A stretch of DNA of 60,532 nucleotides, counting the filler, from Platydemus manokwari (taxonomy: Eukaryota), in NCBI GenBank assembly GCA_037951405.1. It is 5 parts of 5 records of this genome, joined end to end, with 100 filler letters (N's around TTAATTAATTAA, not from the genome) between each part and the next. Parts side by side here need not be neighbours in the genome. Positions count along the whole stretch, not along the records: positions 50,562 to 60,532 come from JBBMOY011183433.1; 4 more parts are not named here. The stretch is one strand, 5' to 3'. Shown here piece after piece: positions 9,181-60,532 of the stretch. Each line of letters starts with the position of its first letter. Within the stretch, counting starts at the first letter, position 1. Below the pieces are notes generated by a model that worked only from the letters and a program-made list of their open reading frames with translations, did not search any database and was not told the DNA's origin. The translations under genes and the position numbers were made by a program.

Positions 9181-9501
9181 CTTTCCTGTGTTCCGTCTGG
9201 TTTGGCATACCTTGCAGACTGTACACCATTCGTGTATGTCTTTTTTCATATTTAGCCAATAGTATTTTTGTCAGATACGGCTCATGGTTTTCCTGGCGGG
9301 CAGGTTTCCACCTAAAGTTCCGTCGTGATACTGTAGAAGTACTATATTTCGTAGAACTTGGGGTAAGACGATGAGATTATTGCTATCGGTTTGATACTTC
9401 ACGATATCGGCTTGGATAAGAAATCTTCCTTGTTCTCCTTTGATTTGTTTGAGTTTTTTGTCTAAGACGTAAGGTCTACTCGTTTTGTAATTTCTGACCA
9501 T
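9181..9501 (-). pseudogene. Integrase N-terminal zinc-binding (HHCC-type) region, truncated before the DDE core
   Basis: LIVLPQVLRNIVLLQYHDGTLGGNLPARKTMSRI*QKYYWLNMKKDIHEWCTVCKVCQTRR, with an in-frame stop and the second His replaced by Asn. Confidence 0.85.
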
Positions 9502-10295
9502 TGTTCTGTTTTGTATTCTATTGTTTTTACAATTTGCATAATGTCATCATCCTCTTTTTGCAATGCTGCTATATCATATTGGTTGCTTAATGTTTGGTTA
9601 GCAGTGAGTATAATTTCGGCAGTGACTTCATATTCTGTAGTGTCGGTTCGGGATAATACGTCAGCATTTCCGTTGGCTTTGCCTTTTCTATAGCACAGCT
9701 TGATATTGTATTGTCGTAGCTTTAAAGCCCATCTGATGAGTCTTGAGGCTGTGCCTCTGTGTTGCAACAACCATTGTAAAGGTTTGTGATCTGTGGTTTC
9801 GACTCGTGGTGGGATTTCTCCGGTTTCTCCTACATAAATTTCTGCATCGCCTCGTCTTTTCTGTTTGGCGATGGAAATTAATTTCCCTGTGCTGCAATCG
9901 TACACATTATCTTTCAATTGTTTTATTGCATCTTGTCCAACTACGAAATGAGATAGTGCCCCTGTTGATACTCTGGCTTCGACTGTTAACATCTGATTGC
10001 AGATGTGTAACCTACATGGTAGTATTTCTAATAAAGGCAGTTTTGTTCCATTGATTCCAACTATAAGCAGCTGATTTTCATCTTTAATGAGGTTTTGCAT
10101 TTCTATGTGGTTTAGTATTTCCGACCTGATGATAGTGACATCAGCTCCTGTATCTATGAGTGCCATTACAGAGTGGCGGTTAAGTTTTATCTGCATGAGT
10201 CCATTTCTGCCTGTGCTGGCTACGTGGACGTAATCTACCAATCCTCGCTGGTTTTGTCCTTTGATCCTTATGTCATCTTCCTGGTTGTCGATCAT
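9462..10295 (-). pseudogene. Retropepsin protease fused in frame to the RNase H C-terminus (RT deleted)
   Basis: MALIDTGADVTII...FVVGQDAI (protease), then directly TDHKPLQWLL...RLIRWALKLRQYNIKLCYRKGKANGNADVLSR (Ty3/gypsy RNase H end). Confidence 0.88.
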
Positions 10296-10599
10296 TGCCT
10301 ATAGCTCCGTTGTAGGATAAGTTTTCCGTTTGTCATTTCGAGATTTCCCTACAGGTTCCTTGAATTCTTGTTCATTTGAGTCTCCTTGTCTGATCGGTAT
10401 GTCTTGCTCGACTTGTACTAGGCAATAAGGTGGTGCACTGACTGTTGGCTGGTGCCACTGGATGTCACCATGTGTATTTGTGTACCTTTTGGTTTAATTC
10501 TTTCTGTCCAACTTGTAAATGCGTTGGAATATTCTTCATCGCTTTCGTCATTTGTTGACCATCTTGGTTTCCGGATGGTATGTTGCTTTTCCTCCATCC

Positions 10600-12320
10600 A
10601 CGTTTTCGTTTGTTTTATTTCCCTTCGGTGTTGTGCATGTATAAAGTGGTCGGCGCCGGGTGGACATAGTGCCAATAGAATTCTTCTGGTGCATCCGAAG
10701 GCTCGGTATAATAAAAACGCTGTCATTGCTCGGTGAAAAAAGAATGTTCCAAATGTCATAAAGCTACCCCAAATTTGGTACATGAAATTAACGGCGGCTT
10801 TCATGCAATGTTCGGCGGTAACCAGGTTTTCATAGTCTGATCCTTGATCCATCCTGGTAAATTCGTCTGATTATCTCAGTAATGCCTCAATCCCTTAGTT
10901 GCGGAAACATTAACGCTCGTCTAGCATCTTCGATATCTTTTGAGTTTATCGGTCCTAAACTGACACGTCCCTCTATTTCACTTAGATTTAGTGTCTGTAC
11001 TGGTAGGCGTGGTAATCCTCTTGATAATAGTGTCATCCATGCATTCTTAATCTTGTATAGTGGTGCAAAAAGTGGTGTGCACGTTCCCTTTGTAGGCTTG
11101 GCGTTTGGCTCCAATAGTATCCTGGTAATTGAAACCCTATATCTGCTTTTCCCTTGATACATGACCTTTAATTCGTTTGTGCATTCATGTCCATGAGCCA
11201 TCATGACTTGTACCTCTGTACAGTGAAACTCGTACCAGGCTTCTCCATTTACCTTGCCATATTGTTCTTTTTCCATGATGATGGGTGTGATTAAGTTTGG
11301 ATTCGCTATGGCAATAGCTAGTCGGTTGGCAGTTGACAATTAGTGTTTCCTGGTAGATCTCGAGTAGCTGTGACTGTAAGTCATGGTAGAGGAAGTCTCC
11401 TTTATTGTTCATATAGCTGGCAAGTTTAATGTCATTTTTGTGAAGTGTTTGTGCGTTTTTTAGCTTCTCTTTGCTGTAATAGACACCTTCATAATTGGTA
11501 CTGTGATTGGTGCTTTGGTTACTAGTCGAATGACGTCGGAAGACTTGTTTGACATCAGTATTGTAGATACGGCGCGTTCCTTTCTGTCTGAGCGCTCTGC
11601 AGCTCTTTCTAATTGTTTGTCGGTTACATGGGTGCCTGTTCGTTTCTCATAGACTAGCTTGGTACCAGTTATAGCAATGAATGGTCCGCTTTTAAGTAGT
11701 ATCATTTCACAGTTCTACAATTTCCGTGTTGTAAGTAACACTTTGGGTATTGTGTCATTAATCCGGTTTTGGCATCAAATGTTGCCTCAAAAGAGTGTAG
11801 TTCCACTCGGTTATCTTCAATGGTTACTAACCAGGAGGTAGATACTCCGTCCTGAAACTTGGTTCTTCCGGTACATTCTCTATTATGAGTTATTGTTCCA
11901 CCACTGGTTATTATCTCTTGCGTAATCATGTTTGGTTCTACCGTTAAACTTAGTTCAGTGTCGATACGCAGTTTTTTGGTTACGAATCCATCTCGGTAGT
12001 CGATTGGTGCTATGTTCAATATTCGTGGGATTAGTTTAGCGTCTAGTACCACTGTTCTACTATGGTATCCGCAGTAGTACTCGAAAGTTGCTACCTCAAC
12101 TCGGCATTCTTGTACCATGGCTCGTATGAAGTCATTCTCTTGGTAGATGTAATAAGTGTCTGGTTCACTTTTCTGTAACTGGTGCGGTCGCACGGTTGGG
12201 CAATTTATAGAGTCCACTAGAGAGTAGATATTGGATATCTTTGCTTTTCCGTAATCGTAGGCTTGAAGTAGAGTGGTTTTCCCTATTAGACTCATGATTA
12301 GCAGGATTTTGAGTAGTCCT
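10600..12320 (-). pseudogene. Chuvirus-like envelope glycoprotein of element A (frameshifted)
   Basis: Hydrophobic signal LLKILLIMSLIG, then AYD(Y)G..YSLVDSINCP, ECRVEVATFEYYCGYHS, YMNNKGDFLYH, AIANPNLITPI, GEAWYEFHCTEVQV..HECTNELKVMY, ITRILL, DIEDARRALMFP and TM region WGSFMTFGTFF..FGCTRRILLALCPP. Confidence 0.75.
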
Positions 12321-12385
12321 CCTAAATCGTATCCTTGGTTGCTTGAGTGTTTTATGTTTGCTTTATGTTTATCTGGCTTTCGGTT

Positions 12386-12765
12386 TAAGGTGGTCCATCC
12401 ACCTTTGTCTTCTAACCATTGGATTAGGTATCTTTGGCACGTCTGCGATGCTTGCATAACGACATCTTTAAAATGACTCGGTTCCTGATAGGATGAGGTG
12501 ATGATCTGCTGTATCAGGTATGTGAGGGCTACTTTTACGCTCTCCAGGGTCAGTCCTTCCTGAGTTAGTTCAGCTATTATGGTACGTGGGTTGGCATCTC
12601 CCTGGTTTAGTATCTGTTTCATCTTTAGCAGGTATCTTCGGATTGAGCGTATAACCCTTTCGTGCCCGTCGGTTTCTTGGTTAGGGATTCGCGGATTATG
12701 CTGTTCTACCCCGTGTGGTAATGTTAACAAGATTGTTTGGATATCCGTCTCTCGGGTATCGTGGT
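12386..12765 (-). other. Bcl-2-fold-like domain in the element A polyprotein
   Basis: BH4-like HDTRETDIQTILLTLPHG, BH1-position AELTQEGLTLESV (NWGR absent) and BH2-like RYLIQWLEDKGGWTTL with near Bcl-2 spacing, followed by a hydrophobic tail. Confidence 0.6.
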
Positions 12766-13259
12766 TAGCGTCTGCTACTTTTCTCAGGATTTTTGCCTGG
12801 ATTTTGGCGCAAGTCTTCTCGTTTCGTTCCTCCATGAAAGGTGGTCTACCTCGTTTCCGTTTGTTGAACGCTTGTGATTCGGTTTCTAATTCGTGCATGA
12901 TTTTCGTGATAGGTTCGATCTTGTTTTAGATTTGAACCTCTACGGGGACGTTTTCTTAGAGTTCGGTGAGGCCCTTGACGATTGGTGTGTTTAAAAATGC
13001 ATCCAAGTCGACCTCGTAGTTTGGCTGGATCTCGTTTGGTGGATCCGTATTGATTGTCCGGGCCCTTCTGGTTCGGGCGGTCTCGGAAGTGTGATAGTGG
13101 CTCGTTTCCACTAGTACTGGTATTGATTTGGCTGTGGTGATGTGCCCAGGCAGGCATCCTACATTGACCAAGTATTCATCGTCATCTACAGGGTGTTCCC
13201 ATATTGCCATGACGAATGGTTCCCGTACGGGTTGTGCTTTCTTGATGACGGTTCTCAGC

Positions 13260-13511
13260 CGTTTTACTTTGCAATAAATAGATTGCTGTGTTTCCAATGC
13301 TCCGAATTCTGGAGTGTGAATCTGCATTCTGACGCAACAGTGGGCTGTGACTCATCAGATGTCCGTTTTTCTGCAGAAATAGTTGGATTTCTACTTGGTA
13401 CTCAGAAGGCTTTCTGAGTTGCGTTACTAGCATTAGTGCTACTTTGTCTATGATATCGGTTGGCACGATGACTTGAATTATGTCTCCAAGCATTTGCTTG
13501 ATCCTTGTGGT
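13260..13511 (-). other. Ubiquitin-like domain in element A
   Basis: TRIKQMLGDIIQVIVPTDIIDKVALML aligns with ubiquitin [28 protein letters not shown]. It is followed by QLFLQKNGHLMSHSPLLRQ. Confidence 0.55.
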
Positions 13512-13724
13512 GTCATTCTGTTGCAGGGTCCTTTCTAGTTCCTGTCGTAGGCGTTCTGCCTTAGTCATCTGGATTGTGACAAGGACGTTTTCAGTTGTGA
13601 TAACTGTAATTGGCTCTGAGTCACCGGCAATGTGCTCCTCTTCTGCGGTCATCACTCTGTCAGCTCCTGTGTTGGCTGGTCACGAGTGGCCTCGTTCAGC
13701 TCCGGTATTGGCTGGTAACGAGTG

Positions 13725-13897
13725 AGTAGTATGTTATGTCAGTGTTTGGCGCCACCTCCCTCAAATTCTCAATTTACAAAACTATCAATTTTTCTAATCT
13801 AGTATACCCCATTGACCCCCCAACTCGCATATTTTGCAATCCATCAGTCTATCAAACTATCAAACTATCAGGCCAAACACTGACATAACATACTACT
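13725..13897. mobile_element. 173-bp MITE-like element with perfect 26-bp terminal inverted repeats
   Basis: agtagtatgttatgtcagtgtttggc (13725-13750) is the exact reverse complement of gccaaacactgacataacatactact (13872-13897). No clear target-site duplication. Confidence 0.75.
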
Positions 13898-13962
13898 ATA
13901 AACTCCTATTTTTCGGCGATTGGAAAACATAATAATAATTTAAAATCCTAATATAAAAAGTG

Positions 13963-17261: not shown

Positions 17262-20200
17262 TTATAAAACAGCAGTTTCATCTCTGGATAATGTCAGTTT
17301 CGGTTTGATCTGCATGGTCATTAATTCCTGGAGCAACAATTTTGTTGCATATGGCATGATCACCGATGACACGTGTTGACTGGATCTGCACATCTGGCAC
17401 CAATCTTTGCTCGTGGCAAGTAATCCACACTGCTCACAAACGTATGTTCTAAACGGATCACTGCTCAATAACATACGCTCTTTAAGAATTTGCGTTGCAC
17501 CATAGCCAATCAAACAATCGCGTTCCATCTCACCAACTCTCAAACCACCATCCTGAGCTCGACCAACAACCGGTTGTCTTGTTAACGGTTGATTTTTACC
17601 CGTCGATCTGGCATGGACCTTGTCTTGTACCATGTGCTTCAATCTTTGGTAAAATACGGGCCCCATATAAATATCTGCCTCCATTATTTTACCATTGATG
17701 CCACACGTTAAAATCTCTTTTCCTGACATAGAAAATCCCTTGGATCGCATCACTGTTGGATAATCATCGTCGATATTTTTGTGTCCAGCTGTACTGAATA
17801 CTGAACTGTCTCGTATTTGACCATCAAATACCGCACACTTGTTAGCCAATAACTCCAACAATTTCCCGACTGTCATTCTGCTTGGGAAACCATGGGGATT
17901 CATGATCACATCTGGCACTAATCCATCTTCCGTGTACGGCATTTCTTCCAACGGTACAACACGTCCAATGACACCTTTTTGACCATGTCTACTGCTGAGT
18001 TTGTCTCCGATTTCCGGCTGTCTATTTTGACTAGTTTTGACACGCACAAGCGTGTATCCGTGTTCTTCTTGAGTGAACATGACTTGGGTACACTGTGTCC
18101 TTTCGGAGCCATGATATACGGTCGGAGATGGTTTTGGACCAGAATCGGGAATTTTCACTGGATCCGATGAAATCAGTGGGTCTTTTTCGGGTGTTGTAAG
18201 CTTATGTATGAGGACGTCTCCATTTTCGATGAATTTTCCAATCATTGAAGTACCATCGGCTTCGAGTGCGTGTTGCCTAGAATCTAAACAAAAATACCCA
18301 TGAATCAATAACAATGTCGAATGAATCAGATGAAGAGATTCTTATTTCTGTCATCGAATAGTAAAACATAAAGAAACAAGTTCAAAATAAAATAATTTTT
18401 AAAAAAAATAAAAATAAGAAAAAAATAAAAATAAGAAAAAATAAAAATAAGAAAAAATATAAATTACTTTTAATAGCAGGGACACCAAGATCGTCGTTAT
18501 CCTTTAAAATATCAGAAAAGCTCTTATTTGTCAAGCTCCTGAAAATACCGCGCTCTAAAGATGCTTTATTAACGATAAGAGCGTCTTCAATATCATGACC
18601 ACCGAAACATGTGATAGCTACAATAGCATTCTGACCAGCGGGTAACTCATTATATTCCACCAGATTACCGATATTACTTAGTGTCAATGGTCGCTGAGGC
18701 GTTACCAAAATGTGCTGTGTACCATCGGATCTGATTCGTTGATTATTGGATATCACACCGAGAGCTTGTTTACCCATAGCACATTGATATGTGTTTCTGG
18801 GACTTTGATTATGATGTGGAAAAGGAATCAAACTGGCCACTGCACCGAGAGCAGTAGCTGGATCGATATCTAGATGTGTATGATTGTTTGTGATATCATT
18901 TTCAGTAGCAGCTAATAAGCATTCTGCATAACCCTCTCTGGCGTCCAAATATTCAACAACACCTCGTTTGACAAGCTCATTCCATGGCATTAACCCATTG
19001 GCGAGTTTTTCTTTGATTTCATTGGTCAATCTGCTCTTACCATTCTCAACAATGATATACGGTCTCACCATTCGTCCACTATCACTGCAAACATGCAACG
19101 TTTCAACTTCTTCTTCATAATAAATCGAAACATGTTCATGTATATCGCCCTGTCGTCTTAAACATCTCAAATAATGACCGAGTTCTTTCGGTTTATCCGT
19201 CCAACCAATCGGAACACCGTTCAACATAATCACATACATGCCTGCATGATACTCGAATGTAGTCAAATCATCACCATAATTTTCCCGTATTCTCTGTTCC
19301 AAATCCAAATGAGGCAAATCGACGGTGATTTCCACCATGAAAGCCAGATTTTTCACCAAACCACACGCTTCACCTTCTGGAGTATCAGCGGGACAAACGA
19401 ACCCATACTGACTCAGATGTATTGCTCGAGCTCCTGATATTTTTCGAACCTTTTCAAATTGACTGTTTATTCTACCCAAATGTCCGAGAGTAGCGATAAA
19501 ACTCAATCGGTTCAAAACTTGTGTGACACCTGTTCGGTTCATTGCAAAACGTTGGAAATTCCAGTTGCCGGTGTAAATACATTGAAACATGCCATCGGTT
19601 ATATATGATTCTCGTATCATATTACAAGGTTCAAGAGCCATTGCTTTCTTTGTGGAAAGGTTTTTCATCAGTTCCATCTTAAGTGAACCAACGAACGATT
19701 GGAATCTATCTTCGAAAGCCAACGACAAGTACGATCCTACGAGCTCGATACGCTTAACACCATAAAAATCACGATCATCCGGCGATATTAAACCTTTTTC
19801 TGCGAGTAAAATACGCCGAACCATAAATCCCAAATATTTGGCCCTGTGAGTCATATTGTCCGAGCTACCTTTAACGTGATTCAACACTCTCCGATTCAAC
19901 TCTTGTTTGGCCATCAACAAACTTCGTTCTTCCTCTTCCAAAGACGTTGGATTGATTGTCATTTTATTCTCTTTATTCGATGCCAGTTTTATTTTTGGAA
20001 TTAACCACATTATTGCCTGTTTTTGGGAAAATATTTCGAAACTAATAGCTTCTTTGGCGCTGCAAATAAGTTCATTGTGGAGTTCATATTCGACACCGAC
20101 AGATTCGAAAATATCTTTGTGTGCTGGCATATTTAATGCAGCAAATAGTATAAATAATGGAATTGATTCGTTGAAAAGAGAATTTTGAACATAGAAATAG

Positions 20201-20841
20201 CCATTATTTTTGAAAACTGTGGTTTTGGATTTATTTTCTATGGTAAAACTAACAACATGACACACTATTTCAGGATCAGGCAATTTCTCTGACAAAGGTA
20301 CTTTGATTCCTCCTTTCTTTGTGATTTTTTGCTTTTCAATAATCATACGGTTTTTTGCCATTTGTTCCTGCATAAGAAAAACTCTTTCAGTTCCTTTCGT
20401 AATGAAATATCCACCAGTATCATGAATACATTCGCCTTGTTGAATTAATTGTTCGGTAGTTTTACCATACAAATGACATTTGTTTGATCGAAGCATGATT
20501 GGAATTCTTCCTATGATCACATTTTCTTTTTTAATGATTTTATCATTTCCAGGATATTTAACATCAACAGTCACATCACTAGCATAAGTTAAATTTCTCA
20601 ACCGACACTGATGAGGAAAAACCGGTAGCTTTGATCGTCCTTGTTCAACAATAGTTGGAAAGCCCACGTTAATATTTGAAAATTCAACAAACCATTTAAG
20701 AGAAGGTAACTCTATTTTTCCGTGAGTTTTAACGATTTTTTTCATGTCGACATCAACAAAATGGTTAAATGAATCTAAATGATGTCGAACCAAACTATGC
20801 GAATCATGATATAATTTAACTAGCTGATATTTTGGATCCAT
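17262..20841 (-). CDS. POLR3B: RNA polymerase III second-largest subunit RPC2 (divergent), exons 18468..20841 and 17262..18283, about 1131 aa
   Basis: HLDSFNHFV, PHQCRLRNLTY, CPADTPEGEACGLVKNL, IPFPHHNQSPRNTYQCAMGKQA, DIEDA, GDKLSSRHGQKG, MNPHGFPSRMTVG, GGLRVGEMERDCL and C-terminal Zn ribbon. The 184-nt GT..AG phase-1 intron (18284-18467) restores the frame. Confidence 0.9.
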
Positions 20842-23288
20842 AGACTTTATAAAAATTTAAAAAACACAAATTAAAATATATAATTACAATTTGATATAAA
20901 TTATGAATATTATTTAAACAATTTTTTAATTAAATATTTTAAAAATTAATTTTTTCAAGTTTATATTAATCTTAGTTTATTTATTTTAAAAATAGTTTAA
21001 TAAATTTAACTTATGTATTTTAAATTTAATTATTTTATAATTAACTTAAAATTCATTCACGATTGACAAAGTTATTAATTTTCGAATATGAAATGTTTTA
21101 ATTTAATCAATTCTATAAAAAATGTCTTGTCATTCGAAGCAAACAAAACATGGTTATTTTATTTAAATTTGAGTTAAATATCCCAACATGTCTAAAACTG
21201 ATTTCCAAATATCTTTCTAAATTATATAAAATATTCTGTACATGGTTATATGCGTAACCATTAAAGATTGTTTTCGATTATAGAAATTAATTAACATTTT
21301 GAATGTCAATACTAAGCAATATTACAATTATTTTTCATTAATTAATTTTAATAAGTTTATTAAAATAACAAGTTGACGAAATTCAATCCATGATATTTTA
21401 ATTAAATTAAAATTAAGTATTATATTGTGAGTGCAGTGATAAGGACAACCGAGAATTGCGTAAAATTAATTAAATAAAATATATAACTAAGAAACAGAAA
21501 TTAGCAAAAATAAGGTAATAGTAGTAATAATAAACAATTATTTGTAGGAATGCGCAATGAAGATAGAATGTAGAAACTATCCTACCATTAATTCCATAAA
21601 TAAATATCAGTGATCACAGATTCAAGAGCGAGTAAGTTAACGAATAAATAAACGGAAGTAATTACAAAGCAATTTGAATTTGGTAACATACAAATCCCTA
21701 AGTAAAAGGACACGGGAAAAAGTGATATCAATAAGAGAATATGGAGGAATAAATTCTGGATCTGGATGTCAATTCTTAATCTGAGCGTTCAAACAAATCA
21801 CGATGAACTTCAGTACTATTAATAATAATAACCATTTGCATATTGTCTATATTACATTCTGCCTTTTTTTTATCTCTGTGATTAACAGCTATTTACTCTT
21901 GCTTTTTCTAGTTATATGAATTACCTGCTTTTTATTCACATATGTAGTGTAATTAGTTTATGAAATTTAGATTTGTAAAGTATTCCAAATTGTTTAATAA
22001 GAATTAATACAGTAATTATGGGCGAATATTACACCATCGAAACCTATGATCATATTTATTTCTAATCATATTTTATTTCTTCCATTTCCTAGGATTAATT
22101 TTTATAGACAAAGTGGCAAGGTTGGAAGAATTTATAATATATAGAAAAGATCTAGCGACACGACAAAATCAAAATATTAACCCCTAATTTAAAAAAAATC
22201 TAAGATTTTAAAATTTTAATTTTTTTTAATTTATTATTTACAGCACCCACTTGCTCGTTCATTTAATAATAATAAATATAATCAATTTAGATTTTTTTAA
22301 AGAAATGTCACCATGGGGTCTACTATTTTTTCCCTATTATATATATATATATATATAATTCATATATATAATTCATGGTATATATAATTCATTTAATTAA
22401 AAATTAATTAAAAAATTAATATTTTATTTGAATGCTAGATTTGGAATATTATTTATTCGTTCTATCATCTCATTATTAGCAATATGTTGATTTTGGAAAT
22501 GTTTGGAAATTTGTTGCATTGGAATTTTACTTTTTGCGATTCTATTTTTTGACTGATGTTATTCTTTTGGAATCGGAGGAATACTTAATAATACGATTTC
22601 ATTATAATTCTTAAGAATCTTGTGATAATTTTGTAAAAATTTCTAAAGATTTTTTATTGTGTCACAAAATTCATGTCCGAGATCAGTTTTCTCATATGAA
22701 TTTAAGCTTTTAAAATAAATTTCAGCAGATTGACAACCAGTGGAAAATTTATTCATAAAATCTCCTTCAAAATCAAAGCCTCTTATCAAATAGACCTAAT
22801 GGATTAAAAGTTCTATTACATTTATTCGTATATTTATTGATCTATTTATTCATACTTTATATATTTATTTATATTATATTTATTCTTTTCATATTTTACT
22901 TTTAAGATTTATAATTTTTTTATTACAAGATTTCCAAGAATATTTATTCATTTTAATGTGTATTGGGTTTTAAAATTACTCTAAATATTCAAAACCATGC
23001 GTTCGCGTTTACTATTTTGATTTACTACCAGTCTCAACTTTTACAGCTAATAATCTATCTCATTAAATGTGCAAAACTATTTTTGTTTACTCGAAAACTA
23101 ATTCATATCCAACAAAATAACTGCAAATTCGATTATGACAATATTAGTAAGAGAATTTTCAAATTTTAACTTTTAATAATAGAAGATTTTTTATTACAGA
23201 AATTTATTTAAATTATCATGATGATCCTTCAATATGGAATTTGCCAGTAATTTATGATATATTATCTGTAGAAATATATATGATAATG

Positions 23289-24453: not shown

Positions 24454-25339
24454 TGTGGAATCCGACCTTACTTTACACATTAAACTATGATACAATCATA
24501 AATATATATAAAAATAAAAAGAATATTAAAAACATAAAAAAAATTAATTTTAAAAATTCTTAGATTAGATAGAAAAAATAAAATGAATAAAATTCAAAAA
24601 TTTTCATATTAAATTATTTAAAAATAAATAGAACAAAAATTTTATTTTTATAACAAATTCTTTGTTTAAATGATCTCAAGGTCACCCCGGTATAACCCAA
24701 GGTCAAAAGCAAGAAATTATTTCAAAATCTATTTTTAGTAACCACGTCAGTACTAAAAGTAGTGTAGGTCAATTTAGCATCTCAAGTAGCTAAAAATAGT
24801 AGGCTGTTGCTAAATTTAGACATGACTTCTAGAGAGCTCCTAAATTTAAAAACAAAAGAAGACTAAAAATTAACACACCAATATGACGCATGAGACCCAC
24901 AAAATCAGCATATAATAGGAAGCAAATTCAGTTTGATTGCAATTTATCATATGCGATTAATTCAGTTATTTTTCAAAATTTTAACGCATGATTCAAATTT
25001 GATTATTCCGACGACAAGCGAAACCTTTTTATCGAAGAAAAATTCAGACGAATCAATTACTGTTTATCAATTATTGAAGAAGAATTCAAACTCATCCATT
25101 TTATCTATAAATTGAAAAAGCATTCGAAAGACTCAGTTTATTTTCCACTATTATTTTGAAGAAGCATACAGCGAATCATTTTAATTTTCTTTCGAATTCC
25201 GAATCCGTCTATTTTAATTTGCAACAATCATGAGTAAAATTTTGTTTTTATTATGCTCCCATAACTATCTCAATAGCTGTGTGGTTGTTCTAAATTTACT
25301 AGGTTCTACTTATTATCTCCCACCTTTATTTTAACCACA
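24454..25339 (+). repeat. LTR-like repeat beginning TGTGGAATCCGACC (second copy starts at 60399)
   Basis: The first ~130 nt resemble 60399-60532. TGTGG...CCACA inverted termini are a candidate; no TSD, so the right boundary is uncertain. Confidence 0.5.
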
Positions 25340-27124: not shown

Positions 27125-30100
27125 TCATTTCAATTTAGAATTCTTCAACTGTTCAATTTCTTTTTCAACGAGCTTCTTTTTCGTTATGGAAATCTGTGCT
27201 TTATCTCTCTTGTTTTCCGAAAGAAATTTCTTGGCCTCATTGTTGAAATCTTGCGGCAAATTCATTATCGATTGCAAATACGTTTGTCTTGCAGATGGAT
27301 CCGATGATTTCAATTGGTCCTCCAGCTTCCTAACCGACAATTCTTTATCGTGTATCTTTTGTTTCAGTGCTCCAACCAAATCTGCCGACATCTGTGAGCT
27401 ATTATTCGTCAATTTTCGTTTCAAATCTCCAATTTCATATTTCAGAACATCAATGCTTCCAATACGAAACTTGTCCGATTCTTTACCGATCGATGATACC
27501 GGAACAGGTGACATATTGTATTTCTGATTGAAATCATCAATGACAAGCCATTTCTCCTTGATTTGTTCCGATTGACTGCCCAATACTGGGTTTCTAATGC
27601 GTATTTTCACTTCCAGCTTGCCAGCGACAATTTTCCTGTTCTCCATTATATCGAACGTTTCATGAATCAAGCATTGAGATTCCAATTTTTCCAGCTTGAT
27701 GTTGCACGTGCCGTACAATTTGTCTTTTTGGAGAAATCCTTTCTTGTAATAAATATCAGCTTTCAATTGTTTATTCTTGACAACGCGTTGGAAAACACGA
27801 GATTTCAAATTGATTTGGAATTTATGATTGGAATTATAAATGGGATTATTGGATTTCCGAATGGTTTCCGTGGTGAATGTCTGATAGGCATCATTGGGAA
27901 ATGGCAATTCCAATATGATATAAGTGTCGAATTGATCCGCCGAATAACCGGAAGGCAATCCAAAATTCGTTCCTTTGACCACTTCGACCGACATTTCCGT
28001 TTCAGCCAGATCCGGATTGGATCTGATAACGGAAAACATTTTATATTCGTAATGAAATCGAGGAATTTCTGAATTCTTCTGAATAAGACATTTCAAACCA
28101 TTGAGATCTTTCTCACAAGATATCGCCAGACATTCAAATCGTTTGGCACCAATGATATCACCAGCGATGGTGACAGTGTTCTCGTATTTCTTACAGATCT
28201 TGATTTGTTCCAATAATGTGATTTGCAACTGCTTAAATAGTGTTTCTTTGCTGACATTAAGCATTTCTGATGGCATCTCACATTCATCGACATTGATCAT
28301 TTCAAAATTATAATCCATCTCGGTCGGTAGCGATGGTAATTTGGAGAGATCTACTGGCAAACCGGATTCCGATGCTTGGATAAGTTTCTCGAATCCCATC
28401 GATTGACGTAATAACTCTTTAGCCAGAGGTAAATCTCCATCGAGCTTGGCTTTCAGAGCAGCGGCTTTGAATTGACCCTGTCGATCAATCAGCATTTTGG
28501 TGCTTTTTGATGTGGGTTTTGGTTGTGGCTTCTTCACAGCAACAGTGGATGGGGTCGGTTTCGTTGAAGGAACAACAGTCTGATTGGAAAGCGGTGGTCG
28601 ACCTGGTGGTGGAGGTAATTCATCGAAAGCAAATTGCTGATTCTTTTTAAAAGCCTCGATTGCTTCCTCGTATTGTTGAACAACTCGACCTAATCGTCGG
28701 ATTTTACCATCATTACCTTCTGATTTGGCTTTAGTTATGGAATCTTTATAAAAAGCAAGCCGTAATTTAAGCTCCTCTCCCAGAGGTTGAATGGTTGGCT
28801 TTTCAGGTTCGACCAAAACATCATTCGGTTCTTCTGGTTCTAAATTTAAATCGCTGAGCTTAAATTCCGAAGGCGGTGGTGGCATATCACTCAAATCAAA
28901 AGGTTCACCGGCTTTCACCGCTGAAATAACTTCATCGAATTGTTTAGCAACAATCAACAACCCTTTAGCCAACTCAATATTTTTAGATTTGGATTCGACA
29001 GCTGCGGTTTTATATTCGATTTGCCTTTTACATAAAGCATCGATGACTATCTTTTGAGAATTTACTTCAAGATTTTTATCGTTTTTAGGAGACTGTGATC
29101 GATAAGTCTTTTGCGGAGGTTCGCTTGTAGTCTGAATAGTCGATTGTATATTAGTAGATTTGTTTTCTTTACTTTCCTCAGTTTTAAGGGAAACGTGTTG
29201 AGGAATATGAACCATTGGTGGAAATTCTGATTCATCAACCGGTTGGCCTTTCAAAGCCTTTTGTAATAACTCATTGATAAGTTTTAGAGAGCGATCGTAT
29301 CTTTTGGATTTGTTCAGATCATTTGATGCTGTTGCATGCTTAATGGCTTCCTGGTAAAGATTTTTAAGGTTTTGTAACTTTTCAACACTTTCAGACGATG
29401 CAGCTGGGACGCTCTTCTTTTGGACATGGTCTTCTACCTTTTCTTCTTTTAAGAAATCATTTAATTCAGCTAATAATTCCGGATCATTTTCATCGATGTC
29501 ACCATCATTGATATCCTAAAAGACATAAAGTGGGTTCATATGTGGTCACAAAATAATTCGGCTTAAATTAAGAAAAAGGTTATTTGAACTAATGTAATAA
29601 TAATAAACAACAATCACAATTTAAAGTCGTTTCAATATTTTGATTATAAATGTCCCGGTTATTCGGATTCACAGAGTACTTATAATGATTCACATTGTCA
29701 AGTTGATAACCGAGGTTTTGGAAATCACCTATAAGACTTTCAATAAAATATCAAAATGATTGATCCGCCTTTATCTACCATCAATTAAATACAAAAGAAA
29801 TACTTTAATTATTCATTTATTACAATTATCCTGTAATGCTTTCCTCTAGAATTATCACACCTCGACTTAGAAATAGAAAGAAATTGTTTTTTTTAATATT
29901 TAGTTTTATTTTTGAAATTTTCTACCGTTTTGTGAAGGTTGATTTATTAAACATAATTCGGTTGATGGTTCACATTTTATGATGTCGGATAAAAACTAAA
30001 TGAAATTGTTAAACCAGGTTCTATTCTATTCACAACACTTCTACATGACATTTTGAATTTTTTTTAATTTAAGTTTTTTTAATTGTAAATCGACTTAATA

Positions 30101-50561: not shown

Positions 50562-51784
50562 TTACTTTGGATAACAGAATTGTACAAGATTTTCTTTAAT
50601 AAACACTCAATTGTTCTAAAAAATTCCGGTTTTTAAGTCATAGACCCAATATAACTACATAAAAGTCCTAATAATTTAAATAGAAGGATAATAATAAATA
50701 AACAATAGGGTTAATTAAGGTAATTAATCGATATTTATTCGCATTTATCATCGTACGAATGGAGTTTAGGTTTATACATTGATTATCAATTTCACGATAA
50801 AAACAATAATTTACTTTTATTCAGTAATAAATCTGGTATACACAGTTAAAATTCTAATAAAGTTTTCAGACCTTTAGATAATCAGTTTTCTTCCGATAGT
50901 GTAGTCATCAATACTCGCCATTGAAGACATGTCGAACCAAAAAGATATACCTCAAATATCTTTCTATTTAATATTTATTAAAATCTTTATATCAATATAA
51001 ATGACATTCTATACCAGAGCCTTCCCTCGTTTACCACTGTTTTTACCATTCATGTTTGCATAAACTGTGATTCGGAGTGATTGAGTTATTAAGCTTGATT
51101 GAGTTTTTTAATAGCGTACTGCATTATGTTAAACGAATTTCATTGTAGTAAACCTATATAAAAATATTGATATCATATGTGCTATTATTTCGATTATAAT
51201 TTCATTGTTGACTAAAATTAACGCACCTAGCGGGTTTACATCACGCTTCAACCAGTAGTACAGAACTCACACTAGAAATAAAAATAATAAACATACAATC
51301 CCAACCGTTGGAATTATTACTAATTCTTATTGATGGAATTACCATGGCATACAGCGAAAATCAAAGATTAAAAATGTTAAAAATGTTCGAATAATATGTT
51401 TTATTACATATATTAGGGTGAGTATATTATTATTAGTAAAAGTATATTATCTTATTATTTATTAGTTTTAGAAAATGGACGACGAGCACTTCATAGAACA
51501 TTTGATTATATGACAGACATTCCCAACAATTTGAAAGTCTCATCAAAGATTTTAGACGTTTCATACCAGTTACGCACCACGAATAAGTCATTAAAAAATA
51601 AAAATGGCTGATGAGGAGCTAACAATGTTCATCAATTATTTGGAAACTGAAGCAATCCCGGTGCCATTCAACCTTCTCTCTTTAAAGCAAAAAAATTTCA
51701 AATAACCTTATGATAGAAATAATACAATGGAACACGATCGGGAACCCGATGGAGAAATGAATGAATCACAAGAATATTTTATAA

Positions 51785-52711
51785 TTAAAATTGAAAATCA
51801 TCTGTCATTTCTATCCTGTTTTGTATGACTTCCGTCGTCCCTACGTCATATTCATGTTTTGCCATAATATCGTCATATTTGTCTATTATCTCTTGTAATC
51901 TCTGATTTTCTTTCTCGGTTAAATTTTCTTCTGCTATTTTGATCTTTGGATAATGTTTTATTTCTCCCAATACTGCAAATTGGTTGCTATTAATTACTTT
52001 AGCTTTTACACATCTTCCTAATACCATTCCTGATCGCAATATTTTGATATTGTTCCCATAATTGGTAACTCTTAATGGATAATATCCATTCTGTGCTGTA
52101 GCTAAAACCGAACTCATCTGAATCTCATCATCTATCTGTCGTGGTTCAAACATTAATGTTTCATTCGTGGCTTCCACCGCAATCATCAATACGCTTCCAC
52201 ATCTTGCTGGTAGCCGAACTATCTCTTGTATTCTTAGCTTATCGTCTTTATGCTGGGGTGCTTGTTTATATGATATTTGTAACGTTGTTAAATCCAGGAC
52301 TACTCCTGTTAACTGTCCCAACAAATCCATTAATATTAGTATGTCGTTTAATCCTTCTGTTACCACCTTAAATTCGTGATCTATTTGTATGTTTCCGAAC
52401 GCTATATTTATCTTCACTTTCCCAGCTGTTTCAATCCTTTTCTCTCCTGCTCTTACGAGAACATCTTTATCTCTACTTATCTTTGTTTGTTCATATTCAT
52501 TGAGTAATTCCTTTCTAATCATTGATGCCTCTGCGTCTGTGTCTATTAAGGCTCTTGCCGGCCTATTGTTCATCAATACTGTTACTATGAGCCTACGTCC
52601 CTTACCTGTTGCTGAATGTATGGTGTATACTTGTTTTACATTGCTGATTAATGGATCTCTTATTTCACTCATCATCTGTTTTTCTATCGCGTATGGGTAG
52701 TACTCATTCAT
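51785..52711 (-). pseudogene. Retropepsin protease and pre-RT linker of element B
   Basis: RALIDTDAEASMI (DTG changed to DTD), DILILMDLL, then LQEIIDKYDDIMAKHEYDVGTTEVIQNRIEMTDD, the typical lead-in to gypsy RT, where the element is cut off. Confidence 0.85.
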
Positions 52712-52902
52712 TTTCCTATATCCTGGTATCGGTTGTTCAAATAGCTTCTCTTTTCTCCCTCTATATCTTACTTCCCAGTCATCATATCCCTACGGGTAAT
52801 TTGAAGGCATTTCTAGTCTCATCATAGGATTATAGAACCCCTGATTCGTCATTTGTTGATTATACACCCCTTTATTTATTGGATTGTACATTCCTAACTC
52901 AT

Positions 52903-54830
52903 TCATCGACCACATTCCTCCTCCTCTAGCCTGTTTGGTATCTGCTTTATCTGCTCCATCTCACTCTTATGATGTGTTAGCATCATAAGCTTAGCTATTG
53001 GCGGACATATGCAACATAGTATTTTCCATAAACATCCAAAAATTTCTTGTAGCGTTTTCCCCGTAATTAGTGATGAAAATACCATTTTTATTATTACCAC
53101 TATATAATATATTCCCAGAAAGAAGGAAAATATTGTTCCTATTTCCTGGAATCTTCCATATAAACTCTTAAATAGTTATTTTACTGCTTGATTGAAATGA
53201 TCCACCGATAACAAGGCTTCATAATTTAAGGTCTCGTCTGGGCTTCCTCCTAATATTCGTTGTATCATATTCATGATTACTTTTTCTCGTTATATTGGGA
53301 ACAGCATATATTTTCGTGCTTTCTCTATGTTTTCTGCTGCATAAATTCCACTTTCATTCATGTCGTTAAATGGTTGAAATTCTATGTTCCCTGTTACTCC
53401 TGAGCTTTTTAGAATTAATATGTCCGCTCTTGATTTCTTATTCTCCGTCGACACCCATCTTCCATAATCTGTTTTAAATACTGGATCCATAACGTTTGAA
53501 CACGCGTCTATTCTCGCGACCTTGTAATGATTCTTGTTACTAATTATAAAAATACTCTCTTGTTGTTGTATATGATTGGTATCTCGTTGGTGCAGTATTC
53601 ATGTTTTCTGATCACTAAGTTGTTTACCATTTTACATTAGAAAGTATAAATGACTTCTCCCACTACTCTAGCAAATGTACCTTTATCGTCAAATATTAAT
53701 GGGGCTATCAATTCTGGATTTTTTACCGTCAATGCCATCTTTGTTTGTAGCACCTTACGCCTTAGCTTACAATCATTTAACATTATTTCTATGTACATTT
53801 TCTCTAGGTACCCCTGATTAAGGTGGTAAAAGTAATCAAGCTTGTTGATAAAATACTGAGATAACTTAATATCCAATTGATCTACCTCTGTCTTAGCATC
53901 TTTTATTTTGTTCTTACTCAGATATATTCCTTTATAGTTCGTCACTATAACTTACTGTGCACATTCCTTTGTGCACAAACCTCATGGCACTGCTTGTTTG
54001 ATCCGCCATGTATACTATTGGTGGTTCTTTCATTCTGATTTCTACCGTTTCCGTTGGTGTGTCTAGATTTAATTCCTTGGAAAATTTTGTTTCCTTAAAT
54101 ATTTTTCCTTTTATTTCTCTAAATTCCGTTTTTTTGAGCAATGTCAGTGGACTCTTATACGGATTGCTCTTGTACATTATTAGTGATTCCCCCGTATCAC
54201 ATGTTGAATTATCGTATTCGCAATGTGTCCATGTGGTCATTTTCCTTGTTTTTCCATCAAAAGTGGTTTGATATTCTCGCAATTCTATAATATAGTGCCT
54301 GTATGTCATTACATGTTTTACTACCTTTCCATCTATCATGCAATTTCCTCCTTCGGAATATGCCCCATTACTAGACCAACCTGCTTGATTTACTGTGTAC
54401 CTGTTTATTCGTACTGGTGACACCACTACTTGTATTCCTTTTGGTGTTTGGTAAATTCCCTTCTCAAATGCAGCTTTATAACTTTCCACTGACGGTATTT
54501 CTGGTACTAGTAACCATGCCAGCACCAGTGTTACTGTGTATCATATTCTCTTATATGAACAATGAAAAGCACTTAATGATATACAATCTTACATTCCTTT
54601 GCTTTTTCAAACAGAAACTCAGATTCCTAATATACATACATTTCCTTTGGTCTTGACTGTATAATATTTACTGGATATGCCTCTGGGCATTGTTCAATAT
54701 CCAATAGTGAATATTTCTTTCCCCATCGTGGTTTGCCGCAGTCATATCCACTTATTCCGGCATTCGCGCCCCCTATACTGCTTATTACGTATATTGCGAA
54801 TAACGTCTGGACTATTGTTGCCAGTGTAGA
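52903..54830 (-). pseudogene. Chuvirus-like envelope glycoprotein of element B (frameshifted)
   Basis: Signal TLATIVQTLFAIYVISSIGGANAG, then GYDCGKPRWGKKYSLLDIEQCP, HCEYDNSTCDTG, YFINKLDYFYH, NDCKLRRKVLQTKMALTVKNPELIAPLI, ARVVGEVIYTF, GIYAAENIEKARKYMLFP and TM YGRFQEIGTIFSFFLGIYYIVVIIK..FGCLWKILCCICPP. Confidence 0.8.
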
Positions 54831-55694
54831 CCCTGCTCCCCGTACTAGTTTTTCGCGCTCTGGCTTTTTCACTCCCTTTAATAACGTAGTAACCACTGTA
54901 GTCCATCCTCCTAATTCATTTACCATGTCTTCGTATTCATCGTATATTATTTCTGCTCCTTGATCAATACTTACCTTTGTCTTTGGTCTCTGCATTAGTT
55001 TATTGTGCCGTATGTGTTTGTTGACTTTCGTTCAATAATTCTTGATCAAAAATATTGGAATAGCTCTTCATGATTATCATATCTTTAATGATTTTCCTCT
55101 CCCAGCACTTCTGGCAACTCCTCCGTTCGTAATTCTTCTCCTGGTGGCTTTGATACATTTTTTTCCTCATCACTTATTTCTTCTAATGATGTCATCCTCT
55201 TCTTCTATTGCCTTACTACATTCTCCTTCCTTATACGGATACACTATCTTCTTCCTCAACACCCTTTCCTGTTCTTTACTGGTATTGTTTTCTAATTCCA
55301 GTGCCTCTTTTCGTTCCTCTTGTATTTGTTTTATTACATTTTCTCGCGGTTCCCCTTTCTCTGTTGTATTTTCCTTATTTGGGCATTTATGTTTTTGCTT
55401 CTCTATACATCCTAAACATAAGTATCTTTTCTCTATCTCCTTTTGGAGCTGACTTTTCGGCATTCTTTCCATAATGTCCAATGAACTATCTCTTCCTTTC
55501 GTTCTTAATTCCAGCGCCTTTAGGAAATCTTCGCAGGAATTCAATTCACTTGATTTGGAATTTGACGACTTATAGCTAGGTGATTTTTCTTCATTAGCTT
55601 TTGTTGCTGCGGTGACTTCTTCTTCATCCAAATCTACTCCTATTATTTGATTGGCATTTATATATAGTTCCCTTATTTCTTTTTCGACCGGTTC

Positions 55695-58473
55695 TTTATA
55701 CTTGATTAGGACTCCTAAATTATTTAAAATTGTACGATTCAAATGATACTGTTCTAGCAGATACCTGCTTCTCAGTCTTATCCCCTTATTGTAAATCGTG
55801 ATACTTAGTTTATTGACATGTTCTCTCATTAAAAATTTTTGTCTATTATATTCCTTCATTGTTTTCACTACCACGTCTCCTGGCCAACTCATTATGTGAT
55901 CTTTCTCTTCTGTCCACGGGCTTTCCCATATTCGTAATTTGAATGGGTAGCAATTATAATCCATTCTACCTCTGTGTCTTAAGTAGACATAATTTACTCT
56001 TCTTTCTGATAACTTGTAGTCCTTTAATTGACTCCCTTCCACAAATAACTCTTCACTATTCGTTCTCTTTGAATGATGATACGTGAGATATCCATTTTCA
56101 TTCCTATCTGGCCATAGCTCATCTGCCCAATTTAATATAAATCGGATTTCTGCCTTTTCTAACTTTTCAGTTTTTCCACATGTGGCTGTCCATGCTGTCT
56201 TGGCACCAAATGCAAATCTATTATTCGTTGATTATTTATTGTTGCAGGTAACTTTTCCTATTTTACATCATGTGTGAATGGTAACTCTGGAATGGTTGTC
56301 CTGTGAAATGTCAAAGATCTCCATTTAAAGAATGTTCTGGATTTTCGGGGCTTCCATGTTGATCCTTCCCCTTGATGGATCATGACCTCTACAACATTTC
56401 GTCTTCTTCTTTTTATTAAATAATGCCTGCATGTTTTATCATCTTCCATAAACATCCCGTGGTGTATTAATTCCACTAGGAATGGTTTGAATGTCGCGAA
56501 CGGCCACATTGCTGTTGCCATTTGTCGAAACCTTCGTATACTTTCTACTTCGCTTACCATTACCACTCTTATTTGGTGCTGTTGCAGTATACTGGTCATC
56601 ATCATTACTGCTTCAGCCAATTCATCCTTATTCTGTTCATTTGTATTACTATCTGTTGGGGCCTGGGTTGTTGTTGCTTTTTCTGTTGCCATTCTGCTGA
56701 TTCCTGTTCTCCTCCTGGTTGCTCATCTTCACTACTGTCTCCGTCTGAGCCTTCTTTATTTATCATATTAATTTGTAAAATTATCTTGGCCTCCTCTGTT
56801 ATTATATCGATGGCTAAACATCAATTTCCCTGGTCTTTCTTTATGTATTCTCCTATACATTTCCACTCTGTCATACCTTTGTCCTTGAAACTCATTTTCA
56901 CCTTTCCTTTTATTTTTTTCCAACTCCTCCGGCCAATCCAATATTATCAACTTCCTAATCAGTTGGACTGATGTAGACATATTTAATTCCATGTCTTGTT
57001 GCACTTGCTTTCCTTCACTATCCTGTATTATTAATATAAATTTCCTCTTAATCCCGTTATATTTATTGGTGTCTCCTTGAGGGAATTCTCTTTCCCTTTC
57101 CTTCAGTTGTCCCCTTTAGGCCTGTCTCCACAAATCAAATTGTTTTCCTTGCTCGTACCGTATTATTAATTTATTAAATTCATATATAATTTCCTCTGTC
57201 ATATTTATCCTTTATAACTTCTCCCGTATTCTATACGCTTATCTTTCCACACAATAAGGGTTTGTGAAGTATTTTCTCTCCTTAAGCTGTGGATATTTGA
57301 ATGCTATTACCTCTTGACTCATTTCGATTGCATCCGTTCTTGCTACTCCATTTTTACTAACTTTTCTTCTATTTTGTCGAGTCTGTCCATCCATATGGAA
57401 TCTGGCCTCATCTAAAATTCATGACATTGCCGTCTCTTTTTCCATGCTTGATTTATTTTTATGTCTTTCCGTCTTAATACCGTTCGCATCTTTCTTGTGT
57501 CCCTACCGTGATTCTCTCTTCTCCGAATATTGATATTATTGCTTGAATCCGTTCCATTTCATCTCTTGCATCTGGTTTCCTGATACAACTCATCATATTT
57601 ACTTCCTTCGTCTCCTTTTTTTGTTTCTTCCGCCATTCTCTTTTTTTATAATAATATGCACTATAATGCGCAATTATGGTTAACTCATTATGCGTTTTTT
57701 GCGTCATCCCTAAATCACTTAATATCACCTCTTCTTAGACTGGTGTTCCCTTATGCCATGCTTCCACTCAGCATTCAGGATCTTCCTCATTTGGCCAAAA
57801 ACCAAACGTCCATTGCAATATTTCGCTTATGCTTGAATCTTCATCTACCGTAAGTGATTTTATTGTTGCTCTCCCTTTATTATTTCACTGTTAGCTTTCT
57901 TTCTTCGTGCACCAATTTTTCACAATGACTTCATGGGTATAATTTTACAATCCCGTTTTCTATTATTCCATTTGGATATCTCTTCGGGTTTTTCATTACC
58001 ACTATTTTGTTTATCTGTCCACGTCATCCTTGCATGAACATCATTATTTCATCTAAACCCAGTACCCATTCATCCGTCCATCCTGTATACTTATATTTCC
58101 ATCTCCTCTCCATTAACAATTCCAATTTTGGTACCGTCTCTTTTCCTTTAGTAGTTATCCACTCACAATGACTATCCTCCTCTTCACTAACCATTTGGAA
58201 TTCTATTATCACTTTTCCTTCTGATTTTCTTAGATTCTCTCTTCCTCTTTCTATATCATCAAAAGCTGTTCCTCCTCTAACTGTAACTTTTATCTGTCCC
58301 CTATGTCCATACACCGGTTGTGTTTTTATCTTTATTTGCTCAGCTTCCCATAACACCGGACATCGTTTAGCTATGTCTCTGTATATTTTATTCATTGAAT
58401 CATTCAAATTTATTTCTACATAAATTTGTTTCTTAACTCCATATCTATCTTTAACCAGGATTGCCAATTCATA
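55695..58473 (-). other. Array of up to five ubiquitin-fold domains (about 58190-58473, 57665-57900, 56770-57050, 55975-56225, 55695-55946)
   Basis: Each unit shows strand-strand-helix plus, in four, a ubiquitin-like G-x2-L-x5-L-x2-Y/L end: HKGTPV*EEVILSDLGM, FKDKGMTEWKCIGEY, FVEGSQLKDYKL..VYLRHRG and NKGIRLRSRYLLEQYHL. A helix-terminal WP/CP occurs in four units. Confidence 0.55.
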
Positions 58474-60398
58474 TTCTCCTTCTTCTGCATTCTTTCTGGG
58501 TTTTTCTTTAGCATCCATTTTATCATATATCCCTTTACTCTCTAATATTTTCATCAATAGCTGTTCCGCCCGTGCCTCTTTTTCTAAATAATTTGTTTCC
58601 GCTGTATTTCCCCATTCTGGATGCATTTCTTCCTCGTGCTATCAGCAATCTTTTACATGTTCCTACTATCCCTAGTCTTTCTTCCTCCTCATTTATTTCT
58701 GATGTCGTTTCTTCCCTTATTATTTTACTTTTTGTTGCTGTTAGCTGAATCAGTAAATATCCTGCCTTCTTTCCAAATTTTTTAACTCCTTCTATTATTT
58801 GCTGGAATTCAAGGGCATTACTTTTCTCGAAAAATGGCATTCCTATCCTCAGCTTCTGTTCATGTGTTAACAGTCGTTTTAATCTTATTATTACGCTTGG
58901 CGGTTCATTTTCCACTATTCTCCATACCTGAGGATCGAAAGTTCCTTCTCTATTTTCTCTAATTCTCTTTTCACTTGGTGCTTCATTTATTAATTCTCTA
59001 AATATGTCTATCAACGTTTGCACATTAATGTGGTCCATATTCTCCTGTGTTAGCTTCATCCACAATCCATCTTTATCTTCTTGTGGCAACTGCTTCCATA
59101 TGTTATCCATTTTTTCATCGATATCTCCATATCCCTTTCCACATCCTCGTAGTCTTTCTACAAACTCGTCCATAACCTGATAGTCAATTTCTCTATTGAC
59201 TAGATATTGTCCCAGATATCCAGCTTCCTTATTAGTTGTAGAATGTCCTTCCATTGTTACCAATTTTGACGGGACATATATTGGTGACGTTGCTGGCACA
59301 TTTAATACTTTTGGCAGTATTCTTTCAATTACTGGTATTGGTAAAGCTGGTTTTACTGGAATATTTCCTAACAGTACTGCCACTGCTGCTTTGTATTTCC
59401 TTCTTCGTATTACTGGGTCATTTTGAGCATATTTCTCCCCCTTTTTATTTCACCATCTTCCTCACACTTATTTCGTGGCCTTTTAGTTGACAATTCCTTA
59501 TTTCCTATGCACCATTCTACTGGCCTTCCTGTCTCTTCTGTGACATCTATTACTTGGAGATTTTGTTTCTCTTCCCAAATATCATTGATTTCATCTGGTG
59601 AACTAACTTCCTCCATTTCTGATTCTGATTCTATTTCGGATTTTATGCTATTTTCGTCCGCTGTTGCCTTATTTGACACTTCTTCCCCATGCTCTTCTTT
59701 TTTCATCAACTGCTCTTCTGTCTCCACCAGCGTGAATTCTTCCTTATTTTTGTTAACATTCTCCCAAAATTGCTTATTCGATGGTATTCCCGTTATTTGA
59801 CTTAATGTGCAATTCATAAATCTCTGACAAAGTGTTTTCACATTAATTTTATCCCTATCTCTTGTATTATATGTATTATATTTTTCTATTTCCATATATT
59901 TCTCCCATATATTTGTTACAATATTCACACTGGATTCTTCCGTTGCTATTCACCCTGTCTCTCTCATAATTACTTTATTTTGTTTGATTATTGTCATAAC
60001 TTCTCCTATTGGATCCCTCTGCTGACTGACTTCTGGGTCTATTACCCCTTTGCATTTCATTATTATAATAATTATTGTAATTGGCTCTATAGTTCCTCCA
60101 TTGGCTATCAACATTTCGACTGTTAAATTGTGCATAATAATTATTATTTTTATTCCAACGGTAATTGCGATTATTTGCTGGGCTCCTGCTTCTATAATCA
60201 TCATTATTCCTATCTGGAACTCCATTTCTATCACCATTATACTTATTGTCACTATATCTTTGGTCATTTCGCCTATAATTATTATTGTTATATCATCGGT
60301 ATCCATCATCATTGTATCTTCGATCACTTTGTCGATAATTACTATAATTATTATTCCTATTATTGTCCTGATTCCGCGCGCACTCATTATTAACATTC

Positions 60399-60532
60399 TG
60401 TGGAATCCGACCCTACCCGAAACACTAAAACATAAAATACAGATAAATATATATGAGAATAAAAAGAATTTTAAAAATATAAAAAATTTAAATTTAAAAA
60501 ATTTTTACTTTCAACAGAAAAATAAAAATAAA
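60399..60532 (+). repeat. Start of the TGTGGAATCCGACC LTR-like repeat, interrupting element B
   Basis: Similar to 24454 onward. Element B coding sequence stops abruptly here. Confidence 0.6.

Follow-up and report, generated by a model that had tools for sequence, protein, structure and literature searches.

A probable string of diverged ubiquitin-like domains in the first ORF of a gag-env-pol retroelement family of the flatworm Platydemus manokwari

The locus described here raises the question of whether a retroelement of the flatworm Platydemus manokwari carries a row of ubiquitin-like domains (UBLs) and, if so, what such a row would do. The window, meaning the whole stretch of DNA analysed, comprises 60,532 nucleotides, filler included, of AT-rich DNA from assembly GCA_037951405.1 in five joined pieces, and the array locus lies in the last piece (50562-60532). 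The original prediction, made from the sequence alone, had placed here a tandem array of about five divergent ubiquitin-fold domains inside a retroelement. The five stretches quoted in it were all recovered in the minus-strand translation at their coordinates, and the retroelement context was confirmed by an env (PF24664) and a protease (PF13975) on the array strand. Our reading, which we hold with slightly more confidence than doubt, is that the broken first ORF of the element carries four to eight very diverged UBLs, which would act as uncleaved binding modules engaging or soaking up host proteins of the ubiquitin system.

All parts of the element and all units given below are on the minus strand, along which the order is LTR edge, first-ORF pieces, hydrophobic helix, broken env and retroviral protease. 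The probable inner edge of a putative 5' LTR (60400..60532) runs past the end of the window and is the one probable LTR edge of the element within it; summed contig depth, within the element, peaks in this bin. A 134-nt repeat with sharp edges pairs 60399-60532 with 24454-24587 at 77% identity, and the latter stretch may be a solo LTR or a related one. A low-complexity ATT/ATA-rich stretch (59950-60400), in which several frames are open, separates the probable LTR from the first ORF. The long first ORF follows in pieces (59949-55173). Its N-terminal part (58538..59949, in two frames with ORFs of 179 and 304 aa) is likely Gag and capsid-like, as judged from its position and by eye; no Pfam, NCBIfam, PDB or sequence-library match was obtained for it. 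Behind the array come a charged linker (55173..55700) containing a single motif of knuckle-like pattern, CX2CX5HXC, at 55418 and a possible Bcl-2-like remnant, which is followed before env by a hydrophobic helix, likely a signal or anchor (54770..55170; 19-residue hydropathy 1.67). No Bcl-2 Pfam match was found in this array-bearing copy; a GGWTT stretch is common to 54770..55170 and the Bcl-2-like part of a second element described below (52/2000 shuffles).

The broken env (53050..54770) encodes a class III (Monjiviricetes/gB-type) fusion glycoprotein, with PF24664 matched on two pieces (E 6.2e-14, 51 bits, above the cut-off, and 1.1e-05). In the Pfam scan these pieces lie upstream of PF13975 (E 1.6e-06) on one strand, the latter marking a retroviral-type aspartic protease and the start of pol (51788..52789). 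After the protease, 51950-52250 (minus strand) looks by eye like the dUTPase-like PR-RT insert of the planarian element Burro, with no Pfam match. The copy stops about where the reverse transcriptase (RT) would start, no RT or integrase being present in it, and summed depth falls below about position 51560. A repeat of very high depth occupies 50563-50700, its first bin reaching 160,036 summed versus hundreds in the element. From gag through protease (59949 to 51788) the element measures about 8.2 kb, at most about 2,700 codons. With a class III env between a likely gag and pol, the layout is the GAG-ENV-POL layout of flatworm gB-type errantiviruses.

Copy counts were taken as contigs of run X1 placed on the stretch (share 0.83). 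On the piece 2330 such contigs were placed; 413 of them fell on the array (192 of these less than 90% alike), which was covered in 30/30 bins, so the array is a family feature and not a one-off insert. It belongs to a diverged multi-copy family, and the window copy is decayed. In this copy stop codons, together with frame changes near 57885, 56915 and 56170 and at other points, divide the array among three frames; all breaks were read as X. An assembly error behind the breaks is unlikely, since one contig of run X1, which may be the source sample, is identical to 54932-55572 (0 differences) and, at some of the break positions, the majority of the other contigs carry another reading.

Elsewhere in the window a second, distant gag-env-pol element was seen at 9150-13950 (minus strand), in which an env (PF24664, E 1.3e-13 and 8.6e-15) is followed by a protease and then by RNase H and integrase zinc-finger pieces, RT being apparently missing. 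Its env is 24% identical to that of the array element over 115 residues. An unbroken Bcl-2-like domain (12270-12799, minus strand; PF00452, E 0.0097, below the cut-off) stands in frame just before its env signal helix, as in Burro. Among the host genes, Pfam detected a rhodopsin-family receptor, SAH hydrolase, CC2D1 and a Snf7 protein. The long frames without breaks at 6615-7934, 17262-20856 and 27125-29515, which suggest few introns in host genes, encode SAH hydrolase and CC2D1 (by Pfam) and the second-largest subunit of RNA polymerase (by eye).

The best-supported unit of the array, U3b (56360..56614), is an unbroken predicted ubiquitin-fold domain lying between the third and fourth units of the original prediction, where it had not been listed. 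The Pfam ubiquitin model matched it with E 0.016, short of the cut-off. Its first match in the ESM Atlas was ubiquitin-like at 0.90, and 10/10 of the best named matches belonged to one family or clan, an agreement also reached by a third of shuffled proteins. With a four-row alignment of the units as input, AlphaFold2 (AF2) returned a model (pLDDT 75.4, pTM 0.69) whose strands and helices follow the order of a beta-grasp; when the topology of this predicted model was tested, it read beta-beta-alpha-beta-beta-(helix)-beta, in agreement with solved UBLs. Foldseek matches of the model included NEDD8 (E 4.5e-4), a Bacteroides ubiquitin-like protein and ubiquitin, with mouse UBL3 at rank 7 and At3g01050, which we take to be MUB1, at rank 11 and with the top TMq (0.73) among the matches listed. 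The wide structural search (VIA) gave ISG15 at Z 10.8 (rmsd 2.0, 73 aligned), and many UBL classes tied there; over both searches NEDD8, ISG15, ubiquitin, RAD23 and others came out level. UBL3 was not among the best 50 VIA rows, which excludes nothing. Giant-virus ubiquitin-like domains and BVDV inserts were the viral fold matches. The model is 10-22% identical to solved UBLs (Foldseek/VIA). By three partly independent routes (Pfam, Atlas, and AF2 with Foldseek/VIA), U3b is thus predicted to have a ubiquitin fold; as to its UBL class, the model appears to favour no single one, several being tied. The residue that presumably matches ubiquitin Ile44 (ubiquitin numbering) was seen by eye to be kept only in U3b.

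The other units differ widely in condition. U1 (58189..58473), the first unit of the original prediction, is unbroken and a possible ubiquitin-like domain with a long insert; its first Atlas matches were unnamed (0.89) and the named ones were Rad60-SLD (0.87) and ubiquitin (0.87), a sub-threshold lead, while neither a Pfam match nor a ubiquitin-like PDB match was obtained. The alignment of this unit with UBL3 given in the original prediction was not reproduced: phmmer of the unit-1 ORF against the PDB, in which UBL3 is present, gave three matches at E<=10, none of them ubiquitin-like. U2 (57657..57906) is likely ubiquitin-like, although the frame changes close to its start and two stops interrupt it; its distance from WP to the last strand is 36, the same spacing as in U3b, and taken alone it gave no Pfam or PDB match. 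U3 (56800..57046), also likely ubiquitin-like, has a frame change near 56915 and one stop, and its first half was matched by Pfam Rad60-SLD_2 at E 0.057-0.091, below the cut-off. U4 (55962..56250) is likely ubiquitin-like too, bearing a frame change near 56170 and the joint motif defined below. U5 (55701..55949) is unbroken and ubiquitin-like by pattern; in one alignment of the units, U2 and U3b line up with its second half, and it gave no Pfam match and no ubiquitin-like PDB match. Two extra units, the doubtful U1b (57930..58182, with stops inside, placed by spacing and pattern) and the possible U2b (57150..57418, with stops inside and, by our reading, the joint motif), fill leftover gaps and bring the array to up to eight slots. 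In our grading three units are good, two probable, one plausible and two doubtful.

The units had been chosen by eye for ubiquitin-likeness, and they were compared all against all in 28 pairs with 2000 shuffles each (in this run the start of U2 was misframed and U3b shortened). Three of the 28 pairs reached p<0.01, namely U2-U3b (0/2000, z 6.2), U2-U4 (0.0035, z 4.3) and U3b-U4 (0.008), and two more reached p<0.05 (U1-U3, 0.018; U2-U3, 0.048); no significant pair among those tested involved U1b, U2b or U5. The units had been expected to align with each other, and this was seen for these five pairs and in none with unit 5. Identity between unit pieces was 10-29%. The dipeptide WP, put forward in the original prediction as a helix-end feature, was counted five times across the three array frames (2772 codons), always within a proposed unit, and 0 times in the 5833 codons of the remainder of the element. 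In U5 it stands 54 residues before the last strand, instead of 36-40, and is therefore not at the helix end. The joint motif [WY]P-x(33-39)-N-x-[LIV]-x-[ILV], which was defined after the units had been viewed, occurs four times (in U2, U2b, U3b and U4 by our reading), a count reached in 0/2000 codon shuffles.

Leave-one-out profiles were equalled by 0 per 1000 shuffles for U3b (clear) and 16 for U4 (weak), the values for the others being 31 (U1b), 69 (U3), 82 (U1), 233 (U2b), 417 (U2) and 446 (U5). A profile of seven unit pieces retrieved ubiquitin-family chains in 44 of the best 60 of 65 matches; the single-domain E was only 0.03-1, the very low E of polyubiquitin being a sum of 5-bit pieces. 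Tyrosine phosphatases, which took first rank in two other unit profiles, were rejected as short chance matches via WP, so WP alone can mislead; matches to xylose isomerase and ASH2 were likewise discarded as short chance matches.

These results bear on a narrower reading, in which only one to three units (U3b, U2, U4) are true ubiquitin folds and the rest come from pattern-matching on a broken ORF. It would account for the missing pair and profile support of U5, U2b and U1b and the weak support of U1 and U3, for the unit-1 phmmer search without a ubiquitin-like PDB match, and for the single-sequence AF2 run on U4/U5, which without an alignment gave no usable model (pLDDT 33.5). We nevertheless consider it rather unlikely, because U3 (by Pfam) and U1 (by Atlas) add independent weak hints, the motif spacing is regular and sensitivity is low without homologs. 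The poly-UBL region is real in outline, with support that is uneven across units: one unit is predicted to fold as expected, and U2 and U4 appear from alignment to be tied to it. Of the tandem set originally proposed, a beta-grasp prediction was thus obtained for U3b, which was not on its list, and not for U4/U5, and the set extends by alignment to U2 and U4, by weak hints to U1 and U3 and by pattern only to U5.

How the units end bears on their role. A di-glycine right after the last strand is a feature of conjugatable or cleavable ubiquitin-type modifiers. When all GG pairs in the three frames of this copy were listed, none stood in frame after the last strand of a unit; there is no terminal CAAX either, and translation continues past every unit. 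The units are therefore internal domains and not modifiers, lipid-anchored tags or likely cleavage signals, and the pestivirus-type processing signals of the original prediction found no support, with no di-glycine after any unit. That the units are signals for cleavage by host deubiquitinases, as in pestiviruses, or released membrane-anchored modifiers of the UBL3/MUB type, is in our view very improbable. It is true that BVDV polyproteins are among the viral fold matches, that BVDV ubiquitin inserts are in print and that cytopathic BVDV likewise has ubiquitin-fold sequence within a viral polyprotein (PMC13517609, as far as its available text goes). However, besides the missing di-glycine and CAAX and the continuing ORF, this element encodes its own protease. 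According to the same text, BVDV inserts are recent, consist of one or two ubiquitin copies and are tied to the cytopathic type, whereas the present units are old, diverged, family-wide and, at 10-22% identity, far from solved UBLs.

The likeness to UBL3/MUB stated in the original prediction consists of the ubiquitin fold, the weak Rad60-SLD_2 match on unit 3 (E 0.057) and the presence of UBL3 and At3g01050 in the Foldseek results. Membership of that family is a different matter: UBL3/MUB proteins are described in the available part of PMC6158211 as stand-alone and CAAX-anchored, whereas the present units are internal and without a C-terminal CAAX, and other UBLs score equally. In the same source the C-terminal cysteines of UBL3 are needed for anchoring and vesicle sorting.

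A related reading makes the string a ubiquitin tag built into Gag, through which ESCRT or vesicle-sorting receptors would be recruited for budding, so that it replaces a late domain. Ubiquitin fused to Gag can rescue retroviral budding, and the string comes directly after the likely capsid in an element with an env. We find this improbable, since the hydrophobic patch of ubiquitin seems by eye to be poorly kept across the units, and the C-terminal cysteines and CAAX required for UBL3-type vesicle sorting (PMC6158211, available part) are absent here.

Alternatively, the string may be a structural spacer or tether, whose small, stable beta-grasp beads hold the capsid off the anchor and Env in an in-frame Gag-Env polyprotein and have no specific host partner. 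This would suit the position of the units between the likely capsid and the hydrophobic helix preceding env, as well as unit-piece identities of only 10-29% with shared positions that look structural (helix end, last strand). It is unlikely, although it deserves to be taken seriously: the second element has 0 joint motifs and one WP in the 4799 codons of the part present, its 5' part being cut by a gap, and the neighbouring domains of Burro are host-regulatory (PMC6431247, available part).

We prefer to see the units as most likely integral interaction domains, which would act as decoy or recruiter. In the intact element, capsid, UBL string, possible Bcl-2-like part, anchor and Env would have been joined in one polyprotein, as in Burro, a picture pieced together across many breaks. 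In such a polyprotein the UBL string would lie in the cytosol with the capsid on one side and the membrane anchor on the other. One host UBL, possibly UBL3/MUB-like, may have been captured and multiplied by old internal duplication, after which the divergent unit surfaces could bind different E2s, deubiquitinases or ubiquitin receptors. Such binding might shield the Gag polyprotein from degradation or dampen host responses. The boldest version, which we offer as a speculation with doubtful prospects, would have flatworm errantiviruses carry up to eight Gag-fused UBLs that descend by amplification from one captured gene of the UBL3/MUB-like kind and have diverged through an arms race. Each would jam or recruit its own part of the host ubiquitin system, and the Env anchor would at the same time be a Bcl-2-like domain, so that a virus-style immune-evasion cassette would sit inside a retrotransposon.

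The closest known arrangement is that of Burro (GYPSM1), a giant gypsy-like planarian element described in PMC6431247, the available part of which is followed here. Its mononegavirus-related env, in frame and flanked by gag and pol, is preceded by a BCL2-like motif, and a Ubi2/SUMO-like motif (PF11976) stands between MATH and BCL-2; its polyprotein also has MATH and BIR domains in the part that holds the string here, and the authors suggest interference with host ubiquitination and apoptosis. The array element shares with it the env between gag and pol, a ubiquitin-like domain (U3b) upstream of env and accessory domains in the first ORF. The counterpart of its BCL2-like motif is here only the short shared GGWTT stretch, and in the second element the sub-threshold Pfam match (E 0.0097). 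ORF1 of Burro reaches 4,873-5,140 aa and contains MATH, BIR, ankyrin and SMC domains plus CCHC knuckles (PMC6431247), whereas the whole gag-to-protease part takes about 8.2 kb here. On the open pieces scanned of the broken copy no Pfam match to MATH, BIR, ankyrin or CCHC was found, one atypical knuckle following the array. By size, the array-bearing element is not a Burro. Burro is credited in that text with one ubiquitin-like motif, whereas the UBL string occupies most of the space between capsid and env here. A single ubiquitin-like motif at this place in planarian gag-env-pol elements is therefore already known (PMC6431247). The present case adds to this that the motif is replaced by an array and that the element is far smaller.

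A second point of comparison is the errantivirus survey PMC13524379, whose available part gives the GAG-ENV-POL order for gB-type errantiviruses of Nematoda, Bryozoa and Platyhelminthes. Errantiviruses of the Smed_errantivirus_3 type share gene order, env class and multi-copy state with the present family, and in the supplement the row most like this env, as judged by eye, is that of Smed_errantivirus_3. In contrast, no accessory domains are described in the available part of the survey, the words 'ubiquitin' and 'Bcl' having 0 occurrences in its main text and seven supplementary files, and the window copy is broken and lacks RT and integrase. Troyka (PMC12440569) was ruled out as a relative, as it has no env according to the available part of its description.

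The literature searched yielded no account of a retroelement with a UBL array, and nothing on one stands in the available parts of PMC10084718, PMC11410931 and PMC3383448; ubiquitin-like motifs beyond the single one named for Burro may be documented in Grohme 2018, in the Burro figure or in Repbase entries. Protein homolog searches with the 353-aa ORF and the protease gave no homolog, phmmer with a 1093-residue single frame, in which stops were written as X, had 0 matches at E<=0.001 among 1.84 billion representatives, and no relative was met among viral contigs or metagenome contigs. Animal repeats are sparsely represented in these collections, and the empty searches are therefore no sign of novelty.

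Host-manipulating domains are rare in retrotransposons, and planarian gag-env-pol elements are a reported exception. Their ubiquitin-like motif occupies one sentence in the available part of the review PMC6431247, and no test of it was found in the literature. With an accessory region that is mostly diverged UBLs, the present family offers small, soluble and separately testable domains, of which U3b, U1 and U5 are unbroken. The array also points to an unannotated region in intact Schmidtea errantiviruses already in print (PMC13524379, available part), and it suggests that the ubiquitin system restricts such elements.
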